A stretch of DNA of 54,432 nucleotides, taken from IMG/VR virus record IMGVR_UViG_3300027777_000047, positions 1 through 54,432 of that record; one strand, given 5' to 3'. Of the stretch, positions 14,316-52,874 are shown piece after piece. The notes below the pieces were generated by a model that was not told where the DNA came from, made no database searches, and saw only the letters and a list, made by a program, of their open reading frames with translations. A program made the position numbers and the translations under genes. Positions within the stretch are counted from its first letter, which is position 1, and each line of letters begins with the position of its first letter. This DNA comes from a virus (Duplodnaviria > Caudoviricetes).

Positions 14316-15914
14316 TTAAATAAACTCGGGTTCTGCGTAGTCGGGTTCTCGGTAGCTGGGGGCTTTGGGCTGCATGTCGTAAATACGGGCTAGGGCGTCA
14401 ATAAGGTCGACCCGGCCCCCGTGCGGGAAAAAATGAATCTGCATTTTAAGGTCTGCCACTACGTCGTAAATCTCACCGGTCTTGGTTTTGCGGCGTATGG
14501 GTTTAGAAATTCTAAAGTCCTGCCCGCTAGCGCCAAACCGCCGCTGCGTGGTGGTTAGCTTGTTAACGTCGGTGGGGTAGGGTATGTACAACTTACCGGC
14601 TCTAAGGTCGGGGCTCAGGCGTTGTACGCGGTCGGTTTTGCCACCCTCGCCATCACGCGGCCATGCAAGCTCCACTATGGGGAAGGTGCCGCCCTCGTCG
14701 GGTTTGCGCATCTGTTCTTCAAAGTAGTCAAGGTCGGCTTGCGCGCCAAAGGCCTCGTAGCCTACGTAGCAGTTGCGCACGCCGGGGCTGGCTTTCCATT
14801 TATGGTAGAGCATGGCGGTACGCTCCCAGCGCTCCCTTAAATCCATTTGGTGGTTAAATCCGTCCAAAATGTACTTGTTCATGCCGTAGTCTAGGCCCAG
14901 CACCACAATGCCGGTCTTGGCGCTGTTTTTCTTTTTACTGCGGGCGGGGTCCACTAAAATGTACACGTTAAGCGTCTCGGGGCGTACCTCGTAATATCTA
15001 AGGTCCTCAACGTTGAACATGCGCTGCTGGCCGCTAAGGGGGTCTTGCAGCATTTGGCAGGCAATGGTGGCCTCGCCTTGGGCTTTAACCTTTTCGTCCC
15101 ACACGTCTTTGCTAAACAGCACGGGCGCACCGTCTATCTTGCCGGTGTCGGTAGCGGGGTACTTGCGCAGCTTGGCAACTTGGCGCTCCATAATGGTTTC
15201 GTAGGTGTCGGCGTAGCTGTAGCGGGTGCCTATGTGCCATTTGCGGCCTCCGGCGCTGCCCAAGTTGTCGGACATTTCCCATGCGGCGGTGGTCTTTTGT
15301 ATTTGCTCGGGGGTGCTAACGCTCTCAATCGTAACTACGTCGTCATACACAAGCAAGGCAAAGTGTTTACTGGTGGGTTGGCCGTCTACTAGGCCGTGGG
15401 CCTCAAGTGTGGCCTCCTTGGGGTTGCTGCCCCGGCGCACTACAATGCCGTTGTCAAGGCTCCAGCTAGGGCTTTCCCGGCTGGGGTTGCTGTACAACAC
15501 GGTAGGGAACAACGCTTTAAGCTCCTCGTTGCCTTCAAGCTCTTTTTGTATCTGGCGCAAAAACGCTTTGGCAATGGGCTTTGTGTGGCTGAATAACCCT
15601 ACAGTAATGTCGGGGTTCTTCAATATCTCTTGTATTATGCCCGCAAAAGTTATTATGGTGCTCTTGTAGTGTTCGCGGGCCCACAGGTCTAAGTAGCCGT
15701 CGGGCTCGCGCTCAACCTCGCGGCACCGAGCGTAAAGCCATTCGTGTATAGCGTCTACCCGCTTAAGGGTACGCACAAGTAAATAGAATCTATCATTTTG
15801 GCTGAGCCAGACCTTAGCTGGGTCTCCAGCCTGTTCCTCAAGAATTTTCCAAAGCTGCGCTATCTTGTCGAATGGTGCATCTAAGAGCTGCTGCTTTAAG
15901 CGATCAGGGAACAT
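14316..15914 (-). CDS. terL: Terminase large subunit
   Basis: Deviant Walker A (AREHYKST), Walker B (LVYDDVV), GTRY coupling motif, nuclease motifs ILVDPA and DLIDALA. Confidence 0.92.
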   Translation of the reverse strand: MFPDRLKQQLLDAPFDKIAQLWKILEEQAGDPAKVWLSQNDRFYLLVRTLKRVDAIHEWLYARCREVEREPDGYLDLWAREHYKSTIITFAGIIQEILKNPDITVGLFSHTKPIAKAFLRQIQKELEGNEELKALFPTVLYSNPSRESPSWSLDNGIVVRRGSNPKEATLEAHGLVDGQPTSKHFALLVYDDVVTIESVSTPEQIQKTTAAWEMSDNLGSAGGRKWHIGTRYSYADTYETIMERQVAKLRKYPATDTGKIDGAPVLFSKDVWDEKVKAQGEATIACQMLQDPLSGQQRMFNVEDLRYYEVRPETLNVYILVDPARSKKKNSAKTGIVVLGLDYGMNKYILDGFNHQMDLRERWERTAMLYHKWKASPGVRNCYVGYEAFGAQADLDYFEEQMRKPDEGGTFPIVELAWPRDGEGGKTDRVQRLSPDLRAGKLYIPYPTDVNKLTTTQRRFGASGQDFRISKPIRRKTKTGEIYDVVADLKMQIHFFPHGGRVDLIDALARIYDMQPKAPSYREPDYAEPEFI

Positions 15915-16468
15915 TCTCGCCTCTCTAGAATACACTCTCCGTAAGCAATTCGTGTGGAGATTGCTCCGTAATGAAATATAGCTTGTGTGGCCTTGCCACG
16001 TCGTATGGAGGCAGTGACTTTGGTCCTATACTCGGGTGTTTTCCACTGAGCTACACGCAGCTCCCCTAAAGATTTACGTTTTTGGGGGTCTGCCCACGTG
16101 GCTACATTTGCTGCTGCATTAGCTTGCCGTGCTGCTGAACTTTTCCACTGCTCGGTAGATTTTGCTGAGATCTTAGTCCTTACTTCTCCGTGTGGGTCTA
16201 GCACACCCTCACCACCAGCGGTCATATTGTAGGCCGGAGCATACACCTTTATGGCCCGCTGCTCCATAGAACAAAGTGACTCCCAGTCATCGCAAATGAT
16301 TAAAGTCTCCACTTTTGGCACCCCATACTTAGCAATGGCTTTAGTAACTAAGTGTCTAGGGTTTTTTGAACCTTTAACGTGTCCCTTTAGCCTGCGCTCC
16401 GCTGTAGAGCGCGTTATACCTATGTAGGTCTTTCCATTAGGGAAGCTAAGTTGGTACAGACACCCCAT
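15896..16468 (-). CDS. Free-standing GIY-YIG homing endonuclease
   Basis: CLY-x9-YIG, conserved Arg (ERRLKGH), Glu (MEQRAI) and YNMTAGGEG; inserted between terS and terL and overlapping both. Confidence 0.85.
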   Translation of the reverse strand: MGCLYQLSFPNGKTYIGITRSTAERRLKGHVKGSKNPRHLVTKAIAKYGVPKVETLIICDDWESLCSMEQRAIKVYAPAYNMTAGGEGVLDPHGEVRTKISAKSTEQWKSSAARQANAAANVATWADPQKRKSLGELRVAQWKTPEYRTKVTASIRRGKATQAIFHYGAISTRIAYGECILERRECSLIA

Positions 16469-17180
16469 CTCGGATCTCCCCTACGTCAATCACCTCCAGG
16501 GACTTAGCGTCCTCAGGCGTGGGGGCCTGCAAGGCCAGCACGGCGTCAAACTTAGCCATAATTTTGTCAAGACCCTTGGTAACCGCCTCAGGGGGGCGTA
16601 CGGCGTCGGGGTCTTCAATCAAGCCGCTAATACCAAACGCTTGGCGCTCAAGCAACACCAGTGTTTTGAGCGCGGTGGCTAGGGCGTTTATGCTGGTTAC
16701 GCGCTCGGGCATGCTAATTACGCGCCGGTAGGCGGCGTTAAGCCTATCTATGCCACGGTCGTCCGGGGCGTTGAGTAGCTCGCCTAAACCCTCAAACTCC
16801 TCAATACCAACAGTTACAGCGCTAAGCTCTTCAAGCAGTTGGCTAACAATTTTACGCGCGGCTTTAATGTCGGTGCGGTGGTCCACCAACACCGTGCTCT
16901 GCATAGTGGCGGTAACGGCAATAACCTCGGTGCGTAAAGCGTCGCGCTCGGCGCGGTAGCGCTCGGCGGCTTTGGCGTCAATCTCCTCCTGCAAGCGGCG
17001 GCGGGCAAGGGGGTCGCGTAGCCAGCCGTTACGCGTGGCGCGGTTGCTTATGGCGCTGTCGGTGCTGCCAATATCAAGGGCTATGCTGCGTATGGATTTA
17101 ACGCCAAGTTCGTACTGGGCTTGGGCGTAGGCCCAGTCGCCGGCTTTGTCGGGCAGGCGGGCGGGGGTGGCTGTTGCCAT
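16446..17180 (-). CDS. terS: Terminase small subunit
   Basis: N-terminal HTH (SIRSIALDIGSTDSAISNRATRNGW), helical core and LERQAFGI motif; upstream of terL. Confidence 0.75.
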   Translation of the reverse strand: MATATPARLPDKAGDWAYAQAQYELGVKSIRSIALDIGSTDSAISNRATRNGWLRDPLARRRLQEEIDAKAAERYRAERDALRTEVIAVTATMQSTVLVDHRTDIKAARKIVSQLLEELSAVTVGIEEFEGLGELLNAPDDRGIDRLNAAYRRVISMPERVTSINALATALKTLVLLERQAFGISGLIEDPDAVRPPEAVTKGLDKIMAKFDAVLALQAPTPEDAKSLEVIDVGEIRDGVSVPT

Positions 17181-17969: not shown

Positions 17970-18410
17970 ATGGCACGCAAAGCAAAATCCCCCGCCCCAG
18001 TGGCAAACCCCGTGGTCGAAGTAGAGGCCGTTGAAGTGGCCGCAAACCCTTTCGCCGGTCTGTTGGCCGCACCAGTGGCACCAGTGGCACCAGCTAAGGT
18101 GCATGCCGTGGCCGTGGGCGGTGAGACCTATGTGGCCGCAAACCACGTAGCTACCTACAAAGGCACGCGTCCCGTGGCCGTGGGCGGTGCCACCTACCAA
18201 CTGACCGGGCTGCCCTATAACCCTACCGCCGGGCACGTTAACGCATTACAGTGGCAGGCTGTGCTGGACGCTATTGAGGCCAATGACGGCGAGCCCGTTA
18301 CCGTGGCGCAAGTGGCAGCGCAGTACCCGGCCGGTATCGCAGCCGGTAACGCAGCCGGGTTCTTGGCCTACCGGGCTAAGGGTGCAAAGCCGAATGTTGA
18401 ACTAGCATAG
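17970..18410 (+). CDS. Early hypothetical protein (146 aa)
   Basis: Has its own promoter, AGGAGG RBS and terminator. Confidence 0.8.
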   Translation: MARKAKSPAPVANPVVEVEAVEVAANPFAGLLAAPVAPVAPAKVHAVAVGGETYVAANHVATYKGTRPVAVGGATYQLTGLPYNPTAGHVNALQWQAVLDAIEANDGEPVTVAQVAAQYPAGIAAGNAAGFLAYRAKGAKPNVELA

Positions 18411-18429
18411 GGTTTACCCTTAGCCCCTG

Positions 18430-18454
18430 AAACCCGGCCCCGGCCGGGTTTTTT
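18430..18454 (+). terminator. Rho-independent terminator
   Basis: AAACCCGGCC-C-CGGCCGGGTTTTTT GC stem followed by a U-tract. Confidence 0.85.
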
Positions 18455-18701
18455 GCGCCCGGAACCTTACACCAACCTTACACCGACAACGATTGCCGAT
18501 CTGACCACGACCGCCGACCCGACCCGACGACCAGAGACGAGACGAGATGACCTGAGATGATTCTGGTCAGCTCTAGTATTAAATACATTTTGGATCAAAT
18601 AAGAAACTCGCGCGCGTAGGTATCAGTATAGAGTCTGGTCAGCTCAGCGGTCAGCCCCAAGTGCTGACCATTTAGTTTGCCCGCTGACAACTCTGGCCCC
18701 C

Positions 18702-18748
18702 TATAATTGGCATGCCAGCAAATGGCTGGTGGTCTAATTACTAAGGGG
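18702..18748 (+). promoter_or_regulatory. Promoter -10 plus leader hairpin and RBS
   Basis: TATAAT at 18702, CCAGC-AAATG-GCTGG hairpin, CTAATTACTAAGGGG before the ATG at 18759. Confidence 0.6.
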
Positions 18749-18758
18749 TATTCGCACT

Positions 18759-18965
18759 ATGACCGCACTCACAACACCCACACAAATCAACGCTTACAGG
18801 CTAGCCACTCTGCGTAGTGCGCTTAGGCTAGAGTCTAAGGGCATGCGTATGAGTCGGGGTCCAACGGCCCTGTCTATTCTGCGGGGTATGGGCTACAGCG
18901 GCACCCGTACCGCTGTGCTGGCTCAAGTGACCGCCGACGTAGCCGCCAGCATGCAGGAGCACTGA
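18759..18965 (+). CDS. Early hypothetical protein (68 aa)
   Basis: LRSALRLESKGMRMSRG; promoter and RBS upstream. Confidence 0.75.
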   Translation: MTALTTPTQINAYRLATLRSALRLESKGMRMSRGPTALSILRGMGYSGTRTAVLAQVTADVAASMQEH

Positions 18966-18967
18966 GC

Positions 18968-19135
18968 ATGGCCAAACGCACTTACGAAGTTGAGCTAAAG
19001 TACGAGGCCTACGTGGTAGTGACTGTAGACGCCGACAGCGAGGACGACGCCGAGGCTCTTGCAATGGCAGAAGCCGCGCACCTTATTGATAATGGCGGGG
19101 GTTGGACGCTCGAGTCTATTGAGGAACTGGCCTGA
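18968..19135 (+). CDS. Small acidic protein (55 aa, DpnD/PcfM-like pattern)
   Basis: Manually translated MAKRTYEVELKYEAYVVVTVDADSEDDAEALA...ESIEELA. Confidence 0.7.
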   Translation: MAKRTYEVELKYEAYVVVTVDADSEDDAEALAMAEAAHLIDNGGGWTLESIEELA

Positions 19136-19147
19136 GCGCTCAGCACC

Positions 19148-19187
19148 AAGGGCTCCACACTCTGGTTGTGTGGGGTCCTTTTATTTT
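19148..19187 (+). terminator. Rho-independent terminator
   Basis: AAGGGCTCCACAC...GTGTGGGGTCCTTTTATTTT. Confidence 0.7.
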
Positions 19188-19399
19188 AGCCCGGCAAAGT
19201 CAGCTCCAGTCTGGGGTCTAAAAGACTAAGTTCTTTCCAATCAAATCCTAAACTCGCGCGTATAGGTATCCAAGTATTCGGCTTTTGGGGCCAAAATTTA
19301 CTACCAAGGGGCCGTTGACTCGCCACCATTTTGAGCCCCTAGCCCTTAGACAAAAACCCTACCAACTCAGCCCCCGCGCCCCATTTTGGTGGGTTTACA

Positions 19400-19670
19400 G
19401 TCCAAAGCCCAAAATTGGTAGCAAGGACCCAAAAATAGGACCGTTGTTTTATATAGCTTTTTTGCCACAATAACAAGTAGCATGGGTACCCAATACCACG
19501 TATTAAATTAAATATATTATGTTAAGTAGGCAGTTTCACATAGTGTAGGGTTATATATTTGCTAGTTACCATGCTACTAAGAATTAAAAACACTATACAA
19601 TACAACAACTTACGCGGTAGCAAGCACCTCGCTACCTCCACGCTACCATGCTACCACCACTTTTAGGAGC
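19400..19670. other. Candidate replication origin
   Basis: Very AT-rich core (about 19500-19610) flanked by GTAGCA/GCTAC repeats in both orientations, upstream of the primase-helicase. Confidence 0.45.
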
Positions 19671-19678
19671 CTAGACCC

Positions 19679-19975
19679 ATGCCTAATGACTCAAGAAACC
19701 TCCCCTTTTTAAAGCCCGGTGGGTCATTTGTAACGGACCCCATAAGTAGACTTACGCTGTTCCTTAAACGCACGCCTGCTATTCAGCAGCTACAGTGTCC
19801 CCCCTATACCGAGCGCGTTAACCCCACGTGGCGTTTTATAGTGAATGGCGTACCTTGCGAAGTAGAGCGTAGCGACAAGCGATTTTACTTGCGCACTGGA
19901 CGTAAACTTTTGCTTGATAGCACTTACACACGGGGCCAGAGCGGGCGGTTAGAGTCTAATATTCTAGCCTTGTAG
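19679..19975 (+). CDS. Hypothetical protein (98 aa)
   Basis: AGGAG RBS. Confidence 0.6.
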   Translation: MPNDSRNLPFLKPGGSFVTDPISRLTLFLKRTPAIQQLQCPPYTERVNPTWRFIVNGVPCEVERSDKRFYLRTGRKLLLDSTYTRGQSGRLESNILAL

Positions 19976-20108
19976 CGCCCTGCCCAATGCTATACTGGCC
20001 CAAGGCAACAAAAAAGCCACGCGGGGCTGAATCCGGTGGCTTTTAGACTTCTACTTCTACACTTCTACTAGGACAACGCTCAGCAATGAGCGCTGGGTAC
20101 ATTATACC

Positions 20109-22271
20109 ATGTTAGCCTATTCGCAGGTTAAGGGCACTACGCCCCATGCACACGTCACCCCCCCTGAGGTTATTAAATACTTAGCCGACCGCGGAATAAG
20201 TATCACCCTTGCCGCGCAGCTAGAGCTCAAAGTGCTTAGCGCGCAAGCCCTAATGGAGGCCGCACGGGGCATAGTTAGCGCATACGAGGACGACCGGTAC
20301 GCTATAGTGTTCCCCCACCATAGTCCACTGGGGTTTGAAATTGAGTGGTGGAGCGCTAGGCTCGTACCCCGCCGCCCCGCTGCTGACCCCACCCCCCTGC
20401 GGGTGATACACAGTTTTGCCGCTGCCGTTGACCCCACCCTGGCCCCAGCCTACAAACTAGGCAAGATGTTCTGCCCGCCAAGCACTCCGCCAGCAGCGTA
20501 TCTACCCCATGCAGCTACCTTACCCGACTGGACCAAGCTGCCCCGGGGCGCGCGGGTGTTCTTTCATGAGTCAGTCATAAAAGCGATCAATGGTGCGCGG
20601 TTGGGGCACTACAGCATCGGGCTAAACGGCGTGTGGGGTTGGTCTAGCCGCAAGCACCAAATAGCTCTGCTGCCCGAGATTAGAGACATACCTTGGCGCG
20701 CTTTAGAGCTTGAGCCTGTTATTTTGTTTGACACCAACATTAACACCAGCTTCCAAGTTGAGGAGGCCGCCAAGCGCTTAGCCGCTAAGCTGCTAGAACT
20801 TACCGGACGCACGGCGCGTATTCTGCGCATGCACACCAGTGCCGATTTACTTGGTGGTGCCGACTACGGGTTTGACGACTTTGCCGTTACTGTTGGCAAC
20901 ACCCACGCCAAGGCTTTGCTAGACACCCCTTGGCCCGACCTTGAGGAGATTGACATAAGCGAGGTCGAGCTTATGAAGTTCGCCTTGAACAGCAAAGTAG
21001 CCGTGGTGCGTAGTATGAGTAGGGTTGCCGATATTGAGAGCGGTGCTTTAATGACCACTAGCTCTTTTACCGAGCTTGTGTACGCGCACTATCAAGCCCA
21101 AGTGCCTTTGCCCGACGGCACTACTAAGGACGTCAACGTAGCCAAGCTCTGGCTAAAAGACGAGCGTAAGTTGCAGGTAGAGGGTTTGATGTACAGCCCC
21201 GGCCAACCCACCATCCACATGGACGCTGCCGGTAAGGCGTACCTCAACACATGGCGGGGTATGGGCTTAACCCCAGACCCCGGCCTTGTAGACCAGTGGC
21301 TTGGGCTGCTGAGCGCCAACCTTGGAGATTTAGACTTGCAGGAGTGGGTGCTTAACTGGCTGGCGTATCCGTTACAGCACCCGGGCGCTAAGTTGAACAC
21401 CCTGCTGTTGATATTTGGCCCTAGCGGCACGGGTAAAGACCTATTCCTCACACCCATGCACGCTATCTACGGCAACAACGCGGTTAAAGTGAGCAATGAC
21501 GAACTTAAGTCCACCTTTACAAGTCTGTACGCTGCGCGGCAGTTCATACACGCGGACGAACTTAAACGCACCCCCAGCGCCAGCGACAGCGTAAACCAAA
21601 AGATTAAAGGCATGGTCACCAACGCCACCATGACCGTTAACCGCAAAGGCGACCCCGAGTATAAGATCCGCAACGTAGCCAACTTAGCGATTACCAGCAA
21701 CTACTACGACTGTATCAAACTAGACGAGGACGACCGCAGAGCCGCTATTATACGTTGGAGCCCTGTTACCGAGGCCTTAGACATGCGCGGCATGCAGGGT
21801 TACTGGCGTCCGTTGGCCGCGTGGTTGACCAGCACCGCTGGGGCGGCAGCTATCTACGCTTACTTACTAGACCGTGACCTAACCGGGTTTGACCCCGCCG
21901 CGTGGGCTCCCACTACTGTGTGGAAAGAACAGGTGATAGACGCCGCGCGCTCCCCTATTGAGCGGTTTGCTGCTCAGCTTAAAGTAGAGCCCGAACTACA
22001 CTTGCCCCCGTTAACCGATGGCCGCGTGCTATTCACGGCTAAAGAACTTGCCATGTACCACTACGGCCTAGAACCCGCCAAGGGCCAGATAGACGCCTTG
22101 GCTAACGAACTCCGTAACCAGAATTTTGTACGCGCCAACCGCGACAAATCCATTAAAAGCAAGGGCGGTGGAGTTAACCGTTACTGGGTAGTTCAACGGG
22201 CCGACTTGCCCATACAAGACTGGCAAGACCCCACCGTGTGTGGGAAGCATTTAAGGGCACACGGACTTTAA
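20109..22271 (+). CDS. Primase-helicase (DUF3854-like N-terminus plus DUF5906/SF3 NTPase)
   Basis: FFHESVIKA...GLNGVWGW...ILFD...GFDDF primase-like region; Walker A GPSGTGKD, Walker B IHADE, ITSNY...DDRR. Confidence 0.85.
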   Translation: MLAYSQVKGTTPHAHVTPPEVIKYLADRGISITLAAQLELKVLSAQALMEAARGIVSAYEDDRYAIVFPHHSPLGFEIEWWSARLVPRRPAADPTPLRVIHSFAAAVDPTLAPAYKLGKMFCPPSTPPAAYLPHAATLPDWTKLPRGARVFFHESVIKAINGARLGHYSIGLNGVWGWSSRKHQIALLPEIRDIPWRALELEPVILFDTNINTSFQVEEAAKRLAAKLLELTGRTARILRMHTSADLLGGADYGFDDFAVTVGNTHAKALLDTPWPDLEEIDISEVELMKFALNSKVAVVRSMSRVADIESGALMTTSSFTELVYAHYQAQVPLPDGTTKDVNVAKLWLKDERKLQVEGLMYSPGQPTIHMDAAGKAYLNTWRGMGLTPDPGLVDQWLGLLSANLGDLDLQEWVLNWLAYPLQHPGAKLNTLLLIFGPSGTGKDLFLTPMHAIYGNNAVKVSNDELKSTFTSLYAARQFIHADELKRTPSASDSVNQKIKGMVTNATMTVNRKGDPEYKIRNVANLAITSNYYDCIKLDEDDRRAAIIRWSPVTEALDMRGMQGYWRPLAAWLTSTAGAAAIYAYLLDRDLTGFDPAAWAPTTVWKEQVIDAARSPIERFAAQLKVEPELHLPPLTDGRVLFTAKELAMYHYGLEPAKGQIDALANELRNQNFVRANRDKSIKSKGGGVNRYWVVQRADLPIQDWQDPTVCGKHLRAHGL

Positions 22272-22284
22272 AGCACGCTATAAT
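22269..22284 (+). promoter_or_regulatory. Promoter element TAAAGCACGCTATAAT
   Basis: Copy of the conserved motif, followed by a CCAGC/GCTGG hairpin and TAGGAG. Confidence 0.75.
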
Positions 22285-22336
22285 TGCCTTGCCAGCAACC
22301 CGCTGGTGTTCTAATTAACTTAGGAGCATCCATACT

Positions 22337-22573
22337 ATGGGGCAAGTCAAACAATACTATTACAGCTGTCGTTCTTGCGGTGATTGCATAGACCCCGAGC
22401 GTTACGCGCTGGGTTACAGAGTGTGTTTACCGTGTGGCGAGCAAGCCGCGCGCGTAGAGCGCACTAGCTGGTGCGTGGTGCAGGAGTACAGCAAAGGCGC
22501 GTATCAGTTGGTGACGGCCAGTGCAGCTTCCGTAACCTTACGACAAACCAACCCCAAGGAGCAGCGCACATGA
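22337..22573 (+). CDS. Small zinc-finger protein (DksA/TraR C4-like pattern)
   Basis: CRSCGDCIDPERYALGYRVCLPC. Confidence 0.7.
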   Translation: MGQVKQYYYSCRSCGDCIDPERYALGYRVCLPCGEQAARVERTSWCVVQEYSKGAYQLVTASAASVTLRQTNPKEQRT

Positions 22574-22812
22574 CTAAAGTAGTTGCCGGACACAACGACC
22601 CGGGCTACCTGCCCGACGAAGACCCCATTGAGTGCGAAAACCTACAAGAGGCAATACGTTACCTCATGCAAGCAGTGGCCACATACTTCCGTATTGAAAT
22701 AGACGAGATAGAGCTTACCGTGCATGATGTAATGCGTTTCCAGCGGGCGGTAATGAACGCCGAGCCGGGCAGCACGTACATTTTCCGGGGCCATGCGTTC
22801 TGGGTGCACTAA
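22570..22812 (+). CDS. Hypothetical protein (80 aa)
   Basis: ATGA-coupled start MTKVVAGHNDPGYLPD. Confidence 0.7.
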   Translation: MTKVVAGHNDPGYLPDEDPIECENLQEAIRYLMQAVATYFRIEIDEIELTVHDVMRFQRAVMNAEPGSTYIFRGHAFWVH

Positions 22813-22814
22813 AC

Positions 22815-23036
22815 ATGTACTACAAAGACTTTGGACCCTGCGTCCGCATTGAGTATTTAAACAGTCCGCGTGATCTAGCATACGACATCATGGTTTGCAC
22901 TAAACAGCCTAACGACACTTGGCTAGCCTATCGTGGCTTTAACAGTTTGAGCAACGACTACGCCTTTACCAGCGCCAAAGAGCTAGCAGTCGAGCTGGAA
23001 CAAAAATATAAAAATAGTTGTGCGCCGACTATATAG
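22815..23036 (+). CDS. Hypothetical protein (73 aa)
   Basis: ORF in the early operon. Confidence 0.7.
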   Translation: MYYKDFGPCVRIEYLNSPRDLAYDIMVCTKQPNDTWLAYRGFNSLSNDYAFTSAKELAVELEQKYKNSCAPTI

Positions 23037-23047
23037 CACGCTATAAT
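23032..23047 (+). promoter_or_regulatory. Promoter element TATAGCACGCTATAAT
   Basis: Conserved motif, CCCAG/CTGGG hairpin and CTAACTAGGAG. Confidence 0.8.
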
Positions 23048-23097
23048 TAATTACCGGCCCAGCGGTTTTCTGGGTGTACTAACTAGGAGCATCTAGC

Positions 23098-23565
23098 ATG
23101 AAATCTTTAACTGCCGCGCTTGCTGACCGCAAAGCCGACATTGCCCGCCAAGCCTCTAATGTCAAAACACTGAGCCGGGTGGTAAAAGCGACTAACTTGG
23201 CCCGGGCGTTTGACCGCCTAGTGGCCCACTGCCCCCAAGCCGAGCTTATGGTGTACAGCTACAGCGTCTACATTGATGTGCCTGTAAAAAGCATGCAGCA
23301 CATGACTGACGCTTTAGAGTTTTTTGAGAATGAGCTGGGTGTCGAGTTCACCTCCACTAGAGACGAACCTACCGGCGGCGTGCGCCAGTTTGACATTGGC
23401 TGGCAGAGCGCCGAAAAGCTGGGCTTTTGGCTTTACGTCCGCGCGCTGATTAGGGGCAACGAAGACGACCCCACCGCCACCTGCAAACGCGTGCAGACCG
23501 GCGTTAAGATGGTTGAGCAACCAGTTTATGAAATACAGTGTGCTGAACAACTTGCTGTTGCATGA
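23098..23565 (+). CDS. Hypothetical early protein (155 aa)
   Basis: Own promoter and RBS; C-terminal TCKRVQTG...VYEIQC. Confidence 0.8.
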   Translation: MKSLTAALADRKADIARQASNVKTLSRVVKATNLARAFDRLVAHCPQAELMVYSYSVYIDVPVKSMQHMTDALEFFENELGVEFTSTRDEPTGGVRQFDIGWQSAEKLGFWLYVRALIRGNEDDPTATCKRVQTGVKMVEQPVYEIQCAEQLAVA

Positions 23566-23568
23566 GTT

Positions 23569-23584
23569 TATAGCACGCTATAAT
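23569..23584 (+). promoter_or_regulatory. Promoter element TATAGCACGCTATAAT
   Basis: Conserved motif, CCCGG/CCGGG hairpin and CTAACTAGGAG. Confidence 0.8.
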
Positions 23585-23636
23585 GTAGGTACTGGCCCGG
23601 CAGCTTCCGGGATTGCACTAACTAGGAGAGTTTTAA

Positions 23637-24470
23637 ATGGCTAATTTACGTATTCTACGCACCGGCAATGCCCTGACTTTGGCGGGTATTCGCCAAGCGT
23701 GTCCGGCGGTGTTTGCCACTGCCGAGGCCGTGGCCCCTACCCGGGGTCCCCGCTACGAGTATATCCCCACCATTGAGCCCCTTGAACGCCTGCTTGACCA
23801 AGGCTGGGGCGTATTTGAAGCCACCCAGAACCGTGTGCGCGTTGCTGGCAAAGAAGGCTTTTGCCGCCACAGCTTGCGTCTGCGCAAGCTAGACCAAGCC
23901 CTTGACCGCAACAAGTACGGCGGTGCCCTTGACGGCACTGGCGAACTTGTACTTACCAACGCACACGACGGCACCGCCGCCTACACGTTGACGGCAGGGT
24001 ATTTCCGGCTGGTGTGCAGCAATGGCATGACCACTGGCAAAGAGATTGCCGCGCACCGCATAATCCATACCAAGGGGCGCAGCACCGGCATGGTGATTGA
24101 CGTGGCTAGCCGCATCATCGAGGAAGACTTTCCTCGCATGATTGAGCAGATTGAAGGCTTTAAGCAGACCATACTTACTACCGAGCAAACTTACGAGCTT
24201 GCCGCCCACGCTATGGACTTGCGTTACGGCCTTGGCTTGAAACCCTTTAAAGCCGAAGACCTGCTTAAGGTGCGCCGCATGGTTGACGACGGACTTAGCG
24301 CGTGGTCGGTACTTAACCGCATACAGGAGAATGTGATGCAGGGCGGTTGGCATACCAAGAGCATGTTTACTGGCCGCAAGAGCAGCGTGCGTGCTGTTGA
24401 GGCTATTGGCCCCGTAGCCAAGATTAACGCTGGCTTGTGGACCAAAACCGAGGAGCTGTGCCATGGGTGA
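23637..24470 (+). CDS. DUF932/DUF945-family protein
   Basis: RYEYIPT, LTNAHDGTAAY...GYFRLVCSNG, RRMVD...WSVLNRIQEN and NAGLW motifs. Confidence 0.88.
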   Translation: MANLRILRTGNALTLAGIRQACPAVFATAEAVAPTRGPRYEYIPTIEPLERLLDQGWGVFEATQNRVRVAGKEGFCRHSLRLRKLDQALDRNKYGGALDGTGELVLTNAHDGTAAYTLTAGYFRLVCSNGMTTGKEIAAHRIIHTKGRSTGMVIDVASRIIEEDFPRMIEQIEGFKQTILTTEQTYELAAHAMDLRYGLGLKPFKAEDLLKVRRMVDDGLSAWSVLNRIQENVMQGGWHTKSMFTGRKSSVRAVEAIGPVAKINAGLWTKTEELCHG

Positions 24471-24804
24471 TAGAGTACTTATGCAGTGCTGGAGCAGTAG
24501 CACCGGGGCCTTCGGGCCCGTGGTGTACGGCCATTGGGCCGGAGGCGACGCCCCTGTTATTGTGGCCCGACTTGCCCTGCGCATGGCAACCCGCCCGGGC
24601 GACGTGTACTACGCTAGTGCCCGCCTTGTGCAGGAGCTGTGCGCAGCAACCAGCGACCCCAATGGGTCGCTAGGCGTGAGTATTTGGAACACGGACCATA
24701 TACTTACTCCCGACGACAGCCACGGCGACGCTGGCTGTTGGCTAATTGATGTTAGCGACAACTTTAGCACCAAAATACTAGGAGCTAGTGGTGAACAATA
24801 TTAA
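24463..24804 (+). CDS. Hypothetical protein (113 aa)
   Basis: MGDR...VYGHWAG motif; GGAG RBS. Confidence 0.75.
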   Translation: MGDRVLMQCWSSSTGAFGPVVYGHWAGGDAPVIVARLALRMATRPGDVYYASARLVQELCAATSDPNGSLGVSIWNTDHILTPDDSHGDAGCWLIDVSDNFSTKILGASGEQY

Positions 24805-25027
24805 AAAAACCTACATTGTGTTTGTAAACAACATAGAGCGTGAAGTGGAGGCCACCAGCGCCGAAGACGCTATAGATCAAGTCTATGAAGACATTGGCTA
24901 CGACCCGGGCGAGGTATCCTGCGAAGAAGACGATGTACTTAGCATCTGCCAAGCGTGTAACGGCAGCGGCGAAGGAATGAACGAAGGCACCACTTGCCGA
25001 GCGTGCCACGGAAGGGGCGAGTCATGA
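24788..25027 (+). CDS. Acidic protein with DnaJ-type CxxCxGxG zinc finger
   Basis: CQACNGSG...CRACHGRG; highly acidic N-terminal part. Confidence 0.7.
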   Translation: MVNNIKKTYIVFVNNIEREVEATSAEDAIDQVYEDIGYDPGEVSCEEDDVLSICQACNGSGEGMNEGTTCRACHGRGES

Positions 25028-25461: not shown

Positions 25462-25517
25462 TACCCTGCTACAATATAACCAGCGCCCACACCGGGCGCG
25501 CCAAGGACCTAACTAAT

Positions 25518-26163: not shown

Positions 26164-26164
26164 C

Positions 26165-26386: not shown

Positions 26387-26407
26387 ACTAATTAGGAGTT
26401 ACTTATT

Positions 26408-40903: not shown

Positions 40904-40921
40904 ATCAAATTCTTTAAATGT

Positions 40922-41746: not shown

Positions 41747-41754
41747 GATTATTC

Positions 41755-43197
41755 CTAAAGGGTAATAAAGTTAATTGAAACATTTATTTCTTTGCCGGAC
41801 ATATTTGCGTTGGTTAATGCAACTTCACCGGCAGTAAAAAGAAAAAGGCTAAACGAATTTGCATACCCGTAAATGTCACCAACATATGTAGATACAACGG
41901 GAAATGCCATTGTCGTGCATTCGTATGGAAGACTTACCTGAACAGCAGCACCGTTTGCTGTTACGGGCCATGTAATTCGACCTGTGCAAGTAAGAACTTT
42001 TCCAATTCTTACGTATTTGCAATTTAGCAAAGTTAAACTTAATGCTGCGCCAGATGTATCTGCTGGAACCCAAGCTGCTTCTTTGTATTTGTCTAGTTGA
42101 GAATCAGATGTATTAAATTGAAGACTTCTGGCATAAATTCTACCGCCTGTTATATACGATGAAAAATTAACTTCTGGATTTAATACCGGCCCATTGACAA
42201 AAGGGCCAATGTAATTAATATGTTTAAGATTTGCGCCAATGTTCCAATTTCCAGCAGTATTTCCTTCTACATCGGAAACAATAAAATTACTGTATATACC
42301 AGAAGCAGCCATGCCAATTAATGAAACGCCATAGCCGGTATTATTTTCAGACCATAATCCACTAAATGTGTTGTACATTGCGTTTTCAATGTGCAAACCA
42401 TTAGACGCATTGCCTTGTACAGTTAACCCGTTGGCTAATCCACCATTTGCATTCGGTGCAGTGGGATTAATTTGGTCATAAAGATAGACACCATGAACAC
42501 CGTTGTACATGGATGTAACAGAATTCATTTGCCATCCGTTGGCATTTGAATAGCTTTCAGTTGATTTAGGGCCAATTCTAATTCCACTACCGCCCATTTT
42601 TGCAACACTTACGTTCTGCAAAATTGCACGTTGACCAGATGGAATATAAATACCATCACCAGTATTTCCTGTTTGCCCAGAAACTGCAATATTGGCAATT
42701 AACAAATTAAGTACATTTGCGCATTTAATAGCCTCTGTGGTCATTGTTGATTTTTTTAGAATTACAGAGCCACCTTCATAAACAAAAGAAACGCCATTCC
42801 AAAAAGCAAGTCCATTAGTTCCTTGCAAAGTGATTCCATTTATTGCAACATTAATTGTTGATGAAATTAAATAAGTACCACTTGGAAACTGAACAGCGCC
42901 ACCATAAGTTAGTGAATTAATTGCAGCTTGAATTGCCGCCGTATCATCAGCAACCCCATTACCTACAGCCCCAAAATCTAACACACTCACAGACTCGCGC
43001 AGCTTAGTCTGCACCGTAGTTGCTACGGCTCCTGTGCCTGCTGGCAGATAGCCAACTAGACTGGTTCCAGTAGGAGCAGCAATGCTGGCAGCAAGATTGG
43101 ATGCTGACTCTGGAATGGCTCCTTGGACAGTGGTAGACGTAATTCCGCTTACCGGTGCAAAGCTAACCATCGTCGAAAGAACTTTAGTTAAGGACAT
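41755..43197 (-). CDS. Tailspike, Pectate_lyase_3-type beta-helix
   Basis: GTGAVATTVQTKLRESVSVLDFGAVGNGVADDTAAIQAAI...FPSGTYLI. Confidence 0.88.
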   Translation of the reverse strand: MSLTKVLSTMVSFAPVSGITSTTVQGAIPESASNLAASIAAPTGTSLVGYLPAGTGAVATTVQTKLRESVSVLDFGAVGNGVADDTAAIQAAINSLTYGGAVQFPSGTYLISSTINVAINGITLQGTNGLAFWNGVSFVYEGGSVILKKSTMTTEAIKCANVLNLLIANIAVSGQTGNTGDGIYIPSGQRAILQNVSVAKMGGSGIRIGPKSTESYSNANGWQMNSVTSMYNGVHGVYLYDQINPTAPNANGGLANGLTVQGNASNGLHIENAMYNTFSGLWSENNTGYGVSLIGMAASGIYSNFIVSDVEGNTAGNWNIGANLKHINYIGPFVNGPVLNPEVNFSSYITGGRIYARSLQFNTSDSQLDKYKEAAWVPADTSGAALSLTLLNCKYVRIGKVLTCTGRITWPVTANGAAVQVSLPYECTTMAFPVVSTYVGDIYGYANSFSLFLFTAGEVALTNANMSGKEINVSINFITL

Positions 43198-43207
43198 GTA
43201 TTAGCCT

Positions 43208-44665
43208 TTAAGCAATATAGCTTGGATACCATTTTAAAGTAGCGCCATCATAAGTCATTGTTAAGGCTTTATTGACAACGGCTGTACCGGCAAGAGCAAT
43301 GTTTCCAGCAGTAGTCCAGGTAAACGCTCCAGTTGGAATTAGAACAATAGAGCCGCCAGCGCCAGCAAAGAAAGTGGGGACTATGGTGGCTACAGCAGTA
43401 GTTCCACTTACAAAAGTAATGGCTTTGGAAGGGGTAATTACTGTTCCACTTGCAATTGTAGGAGCAGCTGCATTGGTTCCAATTGGATCAGTAACCCTTA
43501 AAGCTCCATTAAATGTAGCGTCAAAACCATTCCAGTAGGCCCGTACATTCGCATCACCATCACTCAAAACAATAAAGTTATTTCCTGTTTGAGAAATAGG
43601 AGCAAATGTTCCGGTATAACTTCCAATAATTACATTCTTGGAGCCAGTTGTAAGACCATTACCAGAGTTATTGCCAATACCAACATTTTTATCGCCTGTT
43701 CCATTTTGAAGTGCGGACGTTCCTATTGCTGTGTTGTAACTACCTGCGGTATTGGTTCGATTGGCTGCATATCCAAATCCAACATTACCTGTACCGGTCA
43801 AATTGTTTTGTATTGCGTTATATCCAAAACCTGTATTGCCATTTCCTGTCGTAGCTGCATTTAATGCCAAATATCCCGCAGCCGTATTAAGGGATAATGC
43901 GCCATTACCCTTGCCAAACGTCAATCCTTGAATTGAAAGCTGGTTGGTAAATGTCGTATCTCCAGCAAATGTTTGAGTGCCAGAAAGTAGCGCTAAAGTG
44001 CCGCTAGCATCTGGAAACGTATAAGTGCGAGTTGTGGCAGTGGTAAGTCCAGCAGCTTCAAAAGTAGCTATTTTGCTTGCATCTACTAAATCGTAGATTG
44101 AGAAAACAGCGTCTGCAAAATTTGGTGGTCCTATTGCTTGCGCATATTTAACCAACATAACCGCACTTAGTAGAACTGCGCTTGTTGTGGTTAAGGTTGT
44201 TCCAGAAACTGTGTAATCAACACCAGGAACCTGGACAACGCCATTGATTGATACGTTGATGTTGTTTATAGAAACTGGAGAAGCGGTAAGCGTCCAGTTT
44301 GTTTGCGTTCCATTACCAGTAAAGACATCCGCATACATAGTTGCGTATACAGACGTAGCATACCCTGTGCCATTTATACCTGTGACGTAGTCCGCCGTGT
44401 AACCTACAGGATTGCCCACGGAATCAGTAAATACGAACTTATACGCTACGCTTTCAAGCAACCAAATTTCTTGCGGGGGGCGTCCGCCACTGTCCAGTAC
44501 TATGGGGTTGGCATTAGCCACGGTGCCGCTAACTGTGGTGTAGGTAGTGGCGGGGGTAGTGGTGCCTGCCAAGTACGTGTAGATGTACCCCCCTGCCAGC
44601 GGCTCCCCACTGTTATTGAAGGCTTGGTATCCACCACCGAAAAATGGAGAAAGGAGTACGGTCAT
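43208..44665 (-). CDS. Tail fibre / spike anchor protein (virion-binding N-terminus, Gly-Asn repeats)
   Basis: GEPLAGGYIYTYLAGTTTP...ANPIVLDSGGR; NTxxGYxA 14-aa repeats. Confidence 0.8.
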   Translation of the reverse strand: MTVLLSPFFGGGYQAFNNSGEPLAGGYIYTYLAGTTTPATTYTTVSGTVANANPIVLDSGGRPPQEIWLLESVAYKFVFTDSVGNPVGYTADYVTGINGTGYATSVYATMYADVFTGNGTQTNWTLTASPVSINNINVSINGVVQVPGVDYTVSGTTLTTTSAVLLSAVMLVKYAQAIGPPNFADAVFSIYDLVDASKIATFEAAGLTTATTRTYTFPDASGTLALLSGTQTFAGDTTFTNQLSIQGLTFGKGNGALSLNTAAGYLALNAATTGNGNTGFGYNAIQNNLTGTGNVGFGYAANRTNTAGSYNTAIGTSALQNGTGDKNVGIGNNSGNGLTTGSKNVIIGSYTGTFAPISQTGNNFIVLSDGDANVRAYWNGFDATFNGALRVTDPIGTNAAAPTIASGTVITPSKAITFVSGTTAVATIVPTFFAGAGGSIVLIPTGAFTWTTAGNIALAGTAVVNKALTMTYDGATLKWYPSYIA

Positions 44666-44688
44666 TTTCAAGGTTCCTGTTTGGGGGC

Positions 44689-44694
44689 ATTATA
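44689..44694 (-). promoter_or_regulatory. -10 hexamer for the tailspike operon
   Basis: GGCTATAAT on the minus strand, with AGGA RBS before the 44665 start. Confidence 0.5.
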
Positions 44695-44702
44695 GCCGGT
44701 GT

Positions 44703-46610: not shown

Positions 46611-47910
46611 ATTTACAGTGCTTAGCGTAGCCCATGGCATGTAGCTTGGGCAGGGTTTCTTCCAACTTCTCGCCTACGTCGTCGCGCAGTATGGGGTTGG
46701 CTACGTGTAGTTGTTTGGCGGTCTTGTAGGCGCGGTGCGCGGCTTGTTTTACGCTGTTGCCAAAGCCGGTAATCACGGCTACGTAGTCGCCAGCAGTGGT
46801 CCACATTTTGCGCTCAAGTACCTTGTCGCCCTCCATGTCAAATTGCTTGGTCATCTGCACGTTTTGGGGGTGTACGTGGGGGCGGTTGCCGCGCGTAATG
46901 CCGTATACGGGCACGCCAGCGGCGGCTTTAACGTCCTCAGTGTGAGGGAACTTACTATGTGCCAGCACCAAGCAGCAGCCAATGTCCTCTTTAAAGCTGG
47001 TAGTGTCCTTGCCGTCTATCGCGTCGCGCATCCAAGCAACGGGGTCTCCGGCGGTAGCGCCAAGCATCATATTGGCAATGGGCCAGCCAAAACGACAAGT
47101 CCATTCGGTAGGCCATGGCTTGCCTTTGTCGTCAATCATAAATCCAAGGGCCGTATCGCCAAGGTGGCCCAGTTTAAGCAGTTCGTCTTCTAGCTTGCCC
47201 AAGGTGTCTTTGCCCAGCTTGCTCTCGGGGGTAAAGTAGGCAATGGTGCCCATCTCGCCAGTGTTGGGTCCGTAGTTGCCGGACATTAGCTTTTTGTGCT
47301 CAAAACTTTCGTTGTACTGACCTACCCAGCCCTTGGACCCCAGAAACCGGGACACCCCCATCTCAATCCCCTCCACAAACGTCTGTAACATCACCTCCCC
47401 CTTGGGGGGCGGGGTGCGGCGCATCCAGGCTACTAGGTCCGCTGGACTCTTGCTTACGTAGGTAAGCGACTTGTCCTCGTTGTCGCCGAGAGTTTTGAAC
47501 ACGAACCTTTCTTCTGTCTTTAGGACGTGTTTTTCTGCCTCGGCCATCGTCTTGAAAGTCTTGTAGGGGACGCATTCTATACCTACTTTCTCCAACAGCC
47601 GCATACCCGTGGTACGGCTAACCTCTAACTTGGTACTTTGGATTGAAGGCCCAAAGTACGGGAACCCTTTTTTCTTAAAGAACTCCAGGCGTTCAATGTA
47701 GTCGTCGTTGCTGGTGCAAAATATAAGCTCTGCCCAGCTAGCGTGGGCCACCCAGTTGTCAACTTTCTGTACGCCTTTAAAGTCTTTGCCAAGGTCGGGG
47801 TGGTTAGCGGGGCGGGGCTTTACAAACCATTTAACGTCGTGTCCAGCGGCGGCGCTGTGCAGCACGTAGCTAAGGCCCACGCCGTCTTGGTCGACTATTA
47901 AAACTTTCAT
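46603..47910 (-). CDS. ATP-grasp ligase, PurD (GAR synthetase)-like fold
   Basis: FGPS....LEVSR, FVFK, LQTFVEGIE, EHKKL..GNYGPNTGEMG, EWTCRFGWP, TAGDYVAV, RDDVG. Confidence 0.85.
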   Translation of the reverse strand: MKVLIVDQDGVGLSYVLHSAAAGHDVKWFVKPRPANHPDLGKDFKGVQKVDNWVAHASWAELIFCTSNDDYIERLEFFKKKGFPYFGPSIQSTKLEVSRTTGMRLLEKVGIECVPYKTFKTMAEAEKHVLKTEERFVFKTLGDNEDKSLTYVSKSPADLVAWMRRTPPPKGEVMLQTFVEGIEMGVSRFLGSKGWVGQYNESFEHKKLMSGNYGPNTGEMGTIAYFTPESKLGKDTLGKLEDELLKLGHLGDTALGFMIDDKGKPWPTEWTCRFGWPIANMMLGATAGDPVAWMRDAIDGKDTTSFKEDIGCCLVLAHSKFPHTEDVKAAAGVPVYGITRGNRPHVHPQNVQMTKQFDMEGDKVLERKMWTTAGDYVAVITGFGNSVKQAAHRAYKTAKQLHVANPILRDDVGEKLEETLPKLHAMGYAKHCKYE

Positions 47911-51645: not shown

Positions 51646-51656
51646 ACTCGTATTCC

Positions 51657-52874
51657 TTATGCGTTAAACGCGTTGTACAGCGAACTTGCACCCTGCACAA
51701 GACCCCCTAAATTGCTGAGCGTGTTGCCTGCGTTAGTCACCGCGCCGGTAACGCCCGTGTTGCGTGCGTTGTTTTGCGCGATAGTGCCCGTAGCAAGAGC
51801 ACCTGCCATATCCTCTTGAATCTTAGCAATGTCGGTAGCGGCGGTGCCGCTGGCCCCAGACCCCACGTTAACCATGCCAGCTAGCGCACTCTGATTAGCG
51901 TTGCGGTTAGCTAGCCATTGGTTAAAGGCTTGGTTTTCGTACTGCGCGGCGTTGCCTTGACCAAACTTGGTCAAATCTGCTAGCGTGTTGGTGCCTAGTA
52001 ACCCGCCCTTGGCGGCGGCGGCATTCTGTATAACGTCGGCACCCTGCGCCTGCGCATTCAACATGGCGGGGCTATTCTGTGCGTCAGCCATCGTAAAGGT
52101 GCTGGCAAACTCGCCACCGGGGGCCACGCCAGCAGCCATGCGTTTTAGGGCGGGTTGTCCGGCGGTAATGTAAGGGTCAAGATACTGTTTTATGGTGCCT
52201 GTAGCCTCTTTTCCACCTGATAAAAGCTGATCTGTAGCCCTTTGAATAGCATCTGCCGAGCTGGCACCGCTGTACAAACTACCTAGTGTACTGAGCAAGG
52301 GCTGTGCGCTAGTGCCTATCTGGCTTAGCGCTTTGCCTACGTTGCCTAGGTTTACACCTGAGCTCATCGTATTCACTCCAGATGCAGCAGCTAAGGCGTC
52401 ACCCGTTAACGCACCCGACGCCGCCCCAGCAGCCCCAGCAGACCCCGGGGCCATGCCGGAGGCTACCATCTCGTTGACAGAGGTAGCGCCTGGAACCGCA
52501 GCGGCAGTAGTACCAGCACCAAATCCACCAGATATTGCAGCAGTTGTTCCAGCATCAGCAGCGGCAGTTTCAGCAGCCAATGCAGCCCCCGGAGCAGATC
52601 CAGCAGTTAACACGCTCGGTGCTAGGGCCTCCCCGCCACCATAGCCAGCAATAGCCTCGCCCACTGCGGCCTCCCCGCCACCACTAGCAGCGGCAGCGGC
52701 GGTTAGTTCTTCAGCAGTCATCGCAGCAGCGCCCTCAGTGCCATACGCAGCCAACAACTCAGGGGCATAAATTGCCGCCGCCACAACTGCTGCGGGAACC
52801 AGTACGGGCTTGATAACGTCATTATAAACGTCACCCAAAGCGTTTTGAATGGGCTCTAAAAAACTACATCCCAT
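51657..52874 (-). CDS. DNA ejection / pilot protein (P22 gp7-like)
   Basis: Gly/Ala-rich; LDPYITAGQ, QNAAAAKGGLLG..L..L.KFGQGNA.QY motif. Confidence 0.75.
   Translation of the reverse strand: MGCSFLEPIQNALGDVYNDVIKPVLVPAAVVAAAIYAPELLAAYGTEGAAAMTAEELTAAAAASGGGEAAVGEAIAGYGGGEALAPSVLTAGSAPGAALAAETAAADAGTTAAISGGFGAGTTAAAVPGATSVNEMVASGMAPGSAGAAGAASGALTGDALAAASGVNTMSSGVNLGNVGKALSQIGTSAQPLLSTLGSLYSGASSADAIQRATDQLLSGGKEATGTIKQYLDPYITAGQPALKRMAAGVAPGGEFASTFTMADAQNSPAMLNAQAQGADVIQNAAAAKGGLLGTNTLADLTKFGQGNAAQYENQAFNQWLANRNANQSALAGMVNVGSGASGTAATDIAKIQEDMAGALATGTIAQNNARNTGVTGAVTNAGNTLSNLGGLVQGASSLYNAFNA

Follow-up and report, generated by a model that had tools for sequence, protein, structure and literature searches.

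Genome and gene content

The window analysed here is the whole of IMG/VR record IMGVR_UViG_3300027777_000047, 54432 nucleotides of a phage of the Caudoviricetes, in which the dinucleotide TC and its complement GA are depleted genome-wide. The two outer parts of the genome, 1-17.9 kb and 36.9-54.4 kb, are read leftward, and the middle, 18-36.8 kb, is read rightward. A Pfam scan of 50 open reading frames (ORFs) of the window, together with PHROG scans, identified an SU10-type portal, capsid, GH108 endolysin, virion genes with SLT and ATP-grasp domains, a primase-helicase with DUF5906, a family A polymerase, a PD-(D/E)XK nuclease and an SNF2 helicase. The features on which the argument depends were as follows.

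1-54432, no strand: whole phage genome, a complete record; symmetrised TC/GA odds ratio 0.63.
14316-15935, minus strand: large terminase (TerL), about 25% identical to annotated phage large terminases and 83-89% to relatives.
18000-36800, plus strand: early/replication block, read rightward, with TC depleted on the plus strand.
27243-29210, plus strand: family A DNA polymerase (PolA; PF00476, E = 8e-49).
32644-33411, plus strand: TET-associated-type glycosyltransferase (TAGT; PF20691, E = 8e-19; phrog_842, E = 4e-44).
33392-34216, plus strand: homologue of 5-hydroxymethyldeoxyuridine (5-hmdU) DNA kinase (PF18723, E = 1.9e-37, profile positions 5-275 of 281).
34149-35186, plus strand: thymidylate-synthase (TS) homologue (PF00303, E = 1e-19; phrog_5131, E = 2e-96).

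Depletion of TC and GA

Across the genome, TC was found 2287 times against 3575 expected, and GA 1963 times against 3219; their sum of 4,250, against 6,794 expected, was far below that of 200 mononucleotide shuffles (z = -35). An earlier note on this DNA had placed the effect in 14316-52874. Depletion was indeed present there (symmetrised odds ratio 0.62), but it was equal outside that interval (0.64 in 1-14315 and 0.63 in 52875-54432). The counts given in that note for sampled stretches were exact (3 TC in 27361-27840, no GA in 46621-46920 and 2 GA in 15001-15300), as was its remark that TT and CT are not depleted: TT/AA was enriched (1.20), and CT/AG stood at 0.92/0.99.

Coding constraints were controlled for by shuffling synonymous codons in 500 replicates, which keeps both the proteins and their codon usage. 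Codon junctions at which T ends one codon and C begins the next (written T-C below) numbered 287 where 671.9 were expected (0.43, z = -20.3), and G-A junctions 590 where 921.4 were expected (0.64, z = -16.8). The next most deviant junction was A-T at 0.72, while T-T, C-C and C-T gave 0.94, 0.99 and 0.97. The two ratios are far from 1, and a true dinucleotide effect therefore survives codon control, as had been supposed. Mantel-Haenszel odds ratios for synonymous third-base choice within codon families, Met and Trp being excluded, were 0.29 for T-C and 0.37 for G-A, so that both strands are treated nearly alike. The odds ratio in non-coding DNA (5,538 bp outside the gene list used) was 0.59.

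Position within the codon was compared over 13,563 core codons. TC reached 0.59, 0.32 and 0.42 of expectation at positions 1-2, at positions 2-3 and across the junction, respectively; the values for GA were 0.99 (1492 against 1502 expected), 0.41 and 0.62. It was correctly observed before that coding-strand GA is largely confined to Asp and Glu codons, and because these codons hold it in place, the asymmetry on each strand tracks gene direction. In the rightward block 18000-36800, for instance, the plus-strand ratio of observed to expected (O/E) per kb was 0.18-0.51 for TC and 0.65-0.99 for GA, with a symmetrised value of 0.60.

Codon choice was affected in the manner described previously, with Ser encoded by AGY in 469 of 774 cases, Phe by TTT in 295 of 424, Ile by ATT or ATA in 515 of 619, and Leu by CTC in only 67 of 1227. 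C-ending codons made up 0.58-0.80 of choices between C and T (0.67-0.80 in two-fold families), but only 0.19-0.30 after T. NGA codons accounted for 0.05-0.11 of their families (GGA for 0.11 of Gly and CGA for 0.05 of its family), GTC for 0.08 of Val and CTC for 0.05 of its family; Phe TTC was the least depleted NTC codon. TerL was among the most strongly recoded genes, having a coding-strand TC O/E of 0.23 and an NTC:NTT ratio of 13:52 against 213:35 for other C:T-ending codons (odds ratio 0.04). For PolA, the NTC odds ratio was 0.12 and the T-C value 0.25.

A translational or codon-usage cause was excluded by the junction effect (z of -20 and -17), by the effect on GA and by the ratio of 0.59 in non-coding DNA. 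An artefact of assembly or base-calling was also rejected: in each local reading frame the replacements were invariably synonymous, and independent metagenome contigs share the bias.

Flanking bases and longer motifs

All 16 xTCy contexts were depleted (0.35-0.94), the weakest being those forced by the Asp codon GAC on the other strand. At junctions, the values stayed within 0.29-0.60 for every base at -2, -1 and +1. Sorted by the base before T, xT-C junctions gave 0.30 (T), 0.40 (C), 0.56 (G) and 0.60 (A); sorted by the base at -2, they gave 0.47 (T), 0.52 (A), 0.29 (C) and 0.42 (G). The TNTC motif of the suggested DarT activity showed no extra depletion, a T at -2 (0.47) lying within the range of the other bases (0.29-0.52). 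What was established is a pressure at the level of DNA against the TpC/GpA step, which is symmetrical between strands, independent of flanking bases and acts site by site.

It is most improbable that the bias is the sum of many restriction sites containing GA or TC (GATC, TCGA, GANTC and six-base palindromes), or a copy of the dinucleotide or codon bias of the host. GATC, TCGA and GANTC did occur only 40, 39 and 62 times, each against about 211 expected, and the first two were rare also by a second-order Markov model (0.70 and 0.53 of its expectation in core regions, and about 0.6 genome-wide). However, even with their whole shortfall taken as primary, the three motifs together explain no more than 39% of the deficit, and only 273 of the 4,250 remaining TC/GA lie inside them; as anticipated, the effect does not reduce to a few sites of 4-6 bp. 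The depletion of all 16 contexts, uniform across junction flanks, also counts against a sum of sites. A copied host bias is opposed by the same junction, GA and non-coding effects that excluded a translational cause, and by the lack of bias in close relatives, presumably on related hosts. We know of no bacterial genome with TC/GA near 0.6.

Avoidance of restriction palindromes is similar in that GATC and TCGA are rarer than their dinucleotides alone would make them. It differs in that the bare dinucleotide is affected here in every flank, and the 4,250 copies that remain, in all contexts, are not those of an all-or-none escape from a site-specific enzyme. CTAG had been thought unusually common, but its 200 sites were set against 212 expected, and the motif stood out only in lacking the depletion seen in most relatives. 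Over-representation relative to mononucleotide expectation was found for TTAA (1.67 in the window and 2.13 in L059, one of the relatives, which are designated here by G or L and a number) and for GCGC (1.55 and 1.94), while ATAT and TATA were low.

Regions of weaker avoidance

The features less affected than the remainder included the following.

7445-8434, minus strand: major capsid gene (weak PF05065 match; 86-93% identical across the clade).
15896-16468, minus strand: GIY-YIG homing-endonuclease-like gene (PF01541, E = 9e-9; GC content 0.49).
38401-44700, minus strand: low-GC island with tailspike-like genes (pectate-lyase-like and beta-helix matches).

The capsid gene had a coding-strand TC O/E of 0.69, which bears out the weaker effect reported for it, with an NTC odds ratio of 0.52 and a T-C value of 1.28. 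It resisted depletion in both depleted lineages, perhaps through competition with translational selection. Little avoidance was seen in the GIY-YIG gene (TC O/E 0.80), which lies between the positions of the small (terS-like) and large terminases. G001 and G003 lack this gene, whose product is probably a homing endonuclease. Coding-strand TC O/E was 0.76-1.00 in 37456-38425. The island had a GC content of 0.37-0.45, compared with 0.52-0.57 elsewhere, and an odds ratio of 0.70; under codon control it contained 87 T-C junctions against 91.7 expected (0.95) and 67 G-A junctions against 93.9 (0.71). No homologue of the island was present in G001, G002 or G003, except for one 96-residue match of 43208-44671 in G003, and it looks like a recently swapped host-range module. 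The less biased genes other than the capsid appear to be recent acquisitions, and the absence of bias is of practical use in flagging the GIY-YIG gene, the lysis-region genes and the tailspike island as imports. Weak homologues of the GIY-YIG gene were observed at the same place in L063 and L067.

Distribution of the trait among relatives

Relatives were represented by 88 loci, recovered in scans with PolA, the kinase, TerL, the primase-helicase and the portal of a relative. Among 77 distinct loci of at least 4 kb, the median TC/GA was 0.98, and three loci fell below 0.7, all of one lineage. Values for syntenic relatives were 0.98 in G001/L001 (PolA 79% and TerL 83% identical to the window), 0.93 in G002, 1.12 in G003 (59 kb, 94% complete by the tool's estimate), 0.93 in L004 and 1.02 in L005. 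The closer PolA relatives L037-L044 were intermediate (0.74-0.90), with within-gene odds ratios of 0.20-0.45 in L037-L041, L043 and L044 and a weaker effect in L042 (0.35 and 0.78). The L059/L060/L072 lineage was more extreme than the window: TC/GA was 0.45-0.54, TC at free positions 0.08-0.20 and NGA 0.03-0.06, and NTC:NTT in TerL was 5:58 against 240:23 for other C:T-ending codons.

The closest relative by TerL, L057 (89% identical), was not depleted (0.98 overall, odds ratio 1.32). A maximum-likelihood tree of TerL (12 rows, the G001 row, L058, being left out) placed the window as sister to L057 (96/96), with L059/L060 next (82/87). Similarly, L072 (0.54) could be compared with L073/L074, whose portals are 79% identical to its own and whose values were 1.03-1.04. 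The trait is patchy and varies quickly among sister phages. That it flips between phages with 89% identical terminases implies a strong and switchable pressure, and comparison of sister genomes offers a way to look for its agent. Over 26 sequences of the clade, TC/GA correlated with GC content (r = -0.87), TT/AA (r = -0.79) and AT (r = +0.82); we take these shifts to be arithmetic consequences of the replacements. Cultured phages gave no blastn match to PolA, and tblastn with TerL and capsid reached no closer than distant relatives, Vibrio phages for example, all under 60% identity; one of these relatives, 234P8, had a TC/GA of 0.93.

No gene that tracks the trait was found among the candidates compared across relatives. 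ORF 23098-23565 (155 residues) had homologues in the partly depleted L041, L042 and L061, and none in the non-depleted G001, G003 and L062, but this is confounded by kinship and produced no lead in Pfam, PHROG or Atlas; ORF 25991-26386 was set aside for the same pattern and the same confounding.

Such patchiness would fit a host-specific arms race (TerL odds ratios of 0.04 in the window and 1.32 in its sister L057; L072 against L073/L074), and it may be asked whether a TC-directed activity of the host, independent of modification, poses a small risk at each TC: a CRISPR protospacer-adjacent motif (PAM) of TCN or TTC, a TC-preferring deaminase or a TC-cutting nuclease. Phages meeting such hosts would lose TC over time, and sisters on other hosts would not. 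Both strands and non-coding DNA are affected, as this predicts, and xT-C depletion is somewhat stronger after T and C than after G and A. To our knowledge, however, published PAM depletion is much weaker than the 0.1-0.4 seen here, and no anti-phage deaminase or nuclease specific for TC is known to us. The available text of two papers describes depletion of the CC (type I-F) PAM dinucleotide in Pseudomonas phages (PMC12174588) and lists TCN and TTC among the PAMs of types I-A, I-B, I-C and I-G (PMC8482600, Table 1). A TTC PAM is nevertheless not favoured, TTC being the least depleted NTC codon of all. Scans of genome contigs with PolA and the tailspike gave no host match, and the window contains no tRNA genes. 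On this evidence, a host activity of this kind is rather unlikely.

Replacement of TC in conserved codons

The route by which TC was lost was examined by aligning orthologous codons with those of non-depleted relatives and counting positions at which the amino acid was conserved. Of 58 TTC codons in L001, 43 corresponded to TTT in the window. GTC became GTG (17), GTA (8) or GTT (7) and was kept in 2 instances, while CTC was spread across all five alternatives. Conserved Ser residues changed from TCN to AGY 34 times relative to L001 and 16 times relative to L057, with 5 and 2 changes in the reverse direction. T-C junctions of L001 at which both residues were conserved had become C-C (27), G-C (13) or A-C (12) in the window and remained T-C in 7 cases; the corresponding numbers for L057 were 27, 7, 6 and 5. 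These patterns point to removal of T where the protein fixes C and of C where T is fixed, as predicted for a pressure on the dinucleotide.

Drift from C to T, or the footprint of deamination in TC context (APOBEC- or DddA-like), therefore does not fit, because T is replaced at conserved junctions and GTC was not lost mainly to GTT; on the first of these points, simple drift through the deaminases suggested in the earlier note also fails. Deamination acting on C alone would fit the replaced T only if lethal hits were counted as a cost, which also limits a deaminase as the host activity discussed above. The window and L057 differ at 66% of four-fold sites, so there was time enough for complete re-equilibration. 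At the amino-acid level no consistent shift was detected, Glu being lower than in L001, L041 and L005 but not than in L057, L037 and L059.

The same data bear on whether TpC is simply hypermutable in this lineage, in a mutational equilibrium like the loss of CpG in vertebrates, the dinucleotide as such being free of selection; T in modified form, or its activated 5-phosphomethyl intermediate, might for instance mispair or damage the base on its 3' side. A free-site O/E of 0.1-0.4 would need only a three- to ten-fold excess in the rate of leaving TC, TT/AA rises as TC/GA falls (the correlation of -0.79 above), non-coding DNA is as depleted as coding DNA, and newly acquired genes are less depleted, as slow amelioration would have it. 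Yet both the T and the C of TC would have to be hypermutable, and the GTC codons lost relative to L001 were spread over GTT (+9), GTA (+4) and GTG (+9) rather than passing mainly to T. The resistance of the highly expressed capsid gene in both depleted lineages is fitted at least equally by a balance of two selections. The one comparison at short divergence, between the window and L043, yielded 52 differences, of which 13 remove TC/GA, 6 create it, 25 are neutral and 8 are unpolarised, too few to tell direction. Hypermutability was accordingly judged an unlikely account.

Genes for thymidine modification

The kinase was 27-31% identical to genes of the M6, PaMx11 and PhiW-14 types, with a ViI-like gene also matched by tblastn, and 44-66% identical to those of clade relatives. 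In the TS homologue an Asn aligns with the Asn of ThyA, where CMP hydroxymethylase has Asp, and this Asn was kept in all 10 aligned clade sequences. The residue presumably sets specificity for uracil as opposed to cytosine, and by its sequence the TS homologue is probably a dUMP hydroxymethylase. The longest ORFs of kinase and TS share 68 bases. Matches to the TS homologue start at residue 19 (PHROG) and residue 61 (Pfam), and its true start is probably further downstream.

TAGT was 52-77% identical in the non-depleted L001, L004, L005 and G002. The slot just upstream of the kinase differed in other relatives: in L041 (15042-16103) it held a 353-residue ORF with no TAGT match and a sub-threshold match to Glyco_trans_1_2 (E = 0.005, 17.2 bits against a cut-off of 25), and in G003 (L054 2427-3338) a 303-residue ORF with neither a TAGT nor a Pfam match. 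Such differences in the transferase slot suggest different final modifications. No aGPT-Pplase or amino-acid:DNA transferase, of the phosphate-displacing kind, was matched by Pfam among the 50 window ORFs, and a neighbouring 161-residue ORF matched no family. Judging from the genes, two of three gene-level criteria of the 5-hmdU kinase pathway appear to be present; the phage was not filed as a member with known chemistry, because there was no recognisable phosphate-displacing transferase. Within the clade, the kinase (57-66% identical) and TS (59-67%) have diverged further than PolA (79-85%) and TerL (83-89%). Because the modification genes diverge faster and the transferase slot varies, it is plausible that sister phages have come to differ in context specificity.

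Our preferred explanation, held tentatively, is that each TpC/GpA step in the duplex carries a cost, that these costs add up, and that selection has recoded the step away where the proteins permit; the cost would arise from the post-replicative thymidine chemistry of the phage itself. With a TS homologue of dUMP-hydroxymethylase type, a 5-hmdU kinase and a glycosyltransferase, T would probably be supplied as 5-hmdU, with modification following in the polymer. In modification of the 5-hmdU-kinase type the next base sets which T is modified. The TpC subset might be disadvantageous in this lineage, either because the adduct is sensed by modification-dependent nucleases or because it is prone to lesions; alternatively, TpC could be the context left unprotected. 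The genome would then keep few TpC. Three steps here are supplied by reasoning: the presence of any modification in this DNA, the role of TpC as the context that matters to the enzyme, and the nature of the cost.

The reading was ranked first because a next-base rule exists in the literature, because END nucleases exist, and because the kinase and TS diverge quickly beside a variable slot. In the available text of the reports concerned, restriction-resistant sites in M6, ViI and PhiW-14 share TG or TC (PMC6449724); phage 15599 modifies TG, less often TC and rarely TT or TA (PMC13458397); and END nucleases restrict phages with hypermodified T, the T of Pbunaviruses being modified at TG (bioRxiv 10.1101/2025.03.31.646159).

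Several results weigh against an origin in the thymidine chemistry of the phage. The depletion had been expected to track the cluster of glycosyltransferase and kinase, but five syntenic relatives with the same TS homologue and kinase, TAGT being present in most of them, had TC/GA values of 0.93-1.12, and all 33 other kinase-bearing contigs in IMG/VR ranged from 0.72 to 1.25. The cluster is thus not sufficient, and a link with hypermodification could operate through a lineage-specific change in enzyme specificity. Nor does the glycosyltransferase track the trait, since L041 is partly depleted without a TAGT match while L001 has TAGT and is not depleted. TG, the best-documented context, was depleted in no relative (0.91-1.29). 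Phage CAjan, which according to the available part of its report modifies G in GA (PMC7544227), has a TC/GA of 0.88, and phages do not, therefore, generally purge their own modification motif. The modification module of L059/L060/L072 was not reached; the portal scan gave L072 and non-depleted relatives, and a scan with exact words from the contig end of the L059 lineage gave only the same two contigs. Finally, modified T in this clade is a prediction from genes. Assemblies were probably broken at the contig end of L059 (1-100) by a long CAG/CAGCCC repeat that lies immediately upstream of the terS-like gene.

Avoidance of ultraviolet (UV) damage was also considered, and a further gene of the plus-strand block is relevant here.

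31587-32090, plus strand: pyrimidine-dimer-glycosylase-like gene (PF03013, 23.5 bits against a cut-off of 23; phrog_624, E = 1e-51).

(6-4) photoproducts form mainly at TC. They are not repaired by a dimer glycosylase, and their avoidance in sunlit lake surface water would entail an additive cost per site, equal on both strands, as observed. Near-identical DNA was indeed recovered from freshwater and lake-water metagenomes (8 runs from 5 further studies, with 29-39% of sampled words; only shares of at least 0.2 were used). Among the relatives fetched, the glycosylase-like gene is present in this genome only: there was no tblastn match in G001, G002 or G003, nor was it listed in the synteny tables of 19 further loci. 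On the other side, TT is enriched, the codon-controlled T-T, C-C and C-T junctions show that CC in particular is unchanged, sister phages lack the avoidance, and the glycosylase assignment is borderline in Pfam, with no sequence match in PDB. The photoproduct alternative of the earlier note is possible but weak, and we regard it as very unlikely. The glycosylase-like gene was also rejected as a tracker of the trait, being unique to the window. In sum, the first interpretation put forward for this DNA is partly supported.

Comparison with known systems

Phages known to hypermodify T (M6, ViI, PhiW-14, SH-Ab 15599 and the Pbunaviruses) resemble the window in having a TS-family hydroxymethylase homologue, a 5-hmdU kinase (PF18723) and their own polymerase, and they choose T by the next base, TG or TC and mostly TG, according to the same three partly available reports. 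The window differs from M6-type phages in its TAGT-type glycosyltransferase as well as in the missing transferase. Depletion of the target dinucleotide is not reported for those phages in the available text, and none occurred in the 33 kinase-bearing contigs. CAjan is comparable in that its DpdA places preQ0 at GA and GGC, the G of GA complementing TC in the same duplex step (PMC7544227, available part), but it is not GA-depleted itself. No TGT/DpdA or Que gene was matched by Pfam among the 50 window ORFs.

CpG avoidance of like strength in animal viruses led to the discovery of a host sensor, which in CpG suppression is ZAP. Suppression of CpG and UpA in RNA viruses is alike in affecting synonymous sites and codon junctions genome-wide, with a cumulative cost per site (PMC7029135, available text); it concerns eukaryotic RNA viruses and other dinucleotides, whereas the present genome is double-stranded DNA and the effect is strand-symmetric. 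The CC PAM depletion of Pseudomonas aeruginosa phages likewise makes a two-base motif rare in escape from a host defence that reads short motifs, as far as the available text of PMC12174588 goes, but the system there is type I-F and the motif here is TC/GA. Avoidance of dinucleotides is therefore known as a phenomenon; avoidance of TC/GA at such strength in a DNA phage appears to be new, no report of it in phages having been found in the open-access literature searched, and the available portion of a dinucleotide survey paper makes no mention of TpC or GpA.

It is conceivable, though doubtful, that TpC is the unit recognised by a new activity on the DNA of lake phages, which evade it through genome-wide recoding. 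An immune sensor or a nuclease of the bacteria might be responsible, perhaps reading hypermodified T jointly with its 3' neighbour. A TpC-recognising activity, if real, would make the avoidance the equivalent, in a DNA phage, of the CpG avoidance known from RNA viruses of vertebrates, and one that goes on and off between sister lineages. If the avoidance is instead tied to thymidine hypermodification, it would offer a read-out, by sequence only, of the context specificity of the enzymes, which is otherwise laborious to obtain.

A further observation concerns 3648-5228, which encodes a 526-residue protein of the structural block that combines an S-adenosylmethionine-dependent methyltransferase domain with a weak, sub-threshold match to GT9 glycosyltransferases. 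This protein is kept at 56-76% identity in G003, L062, L072 and L074.

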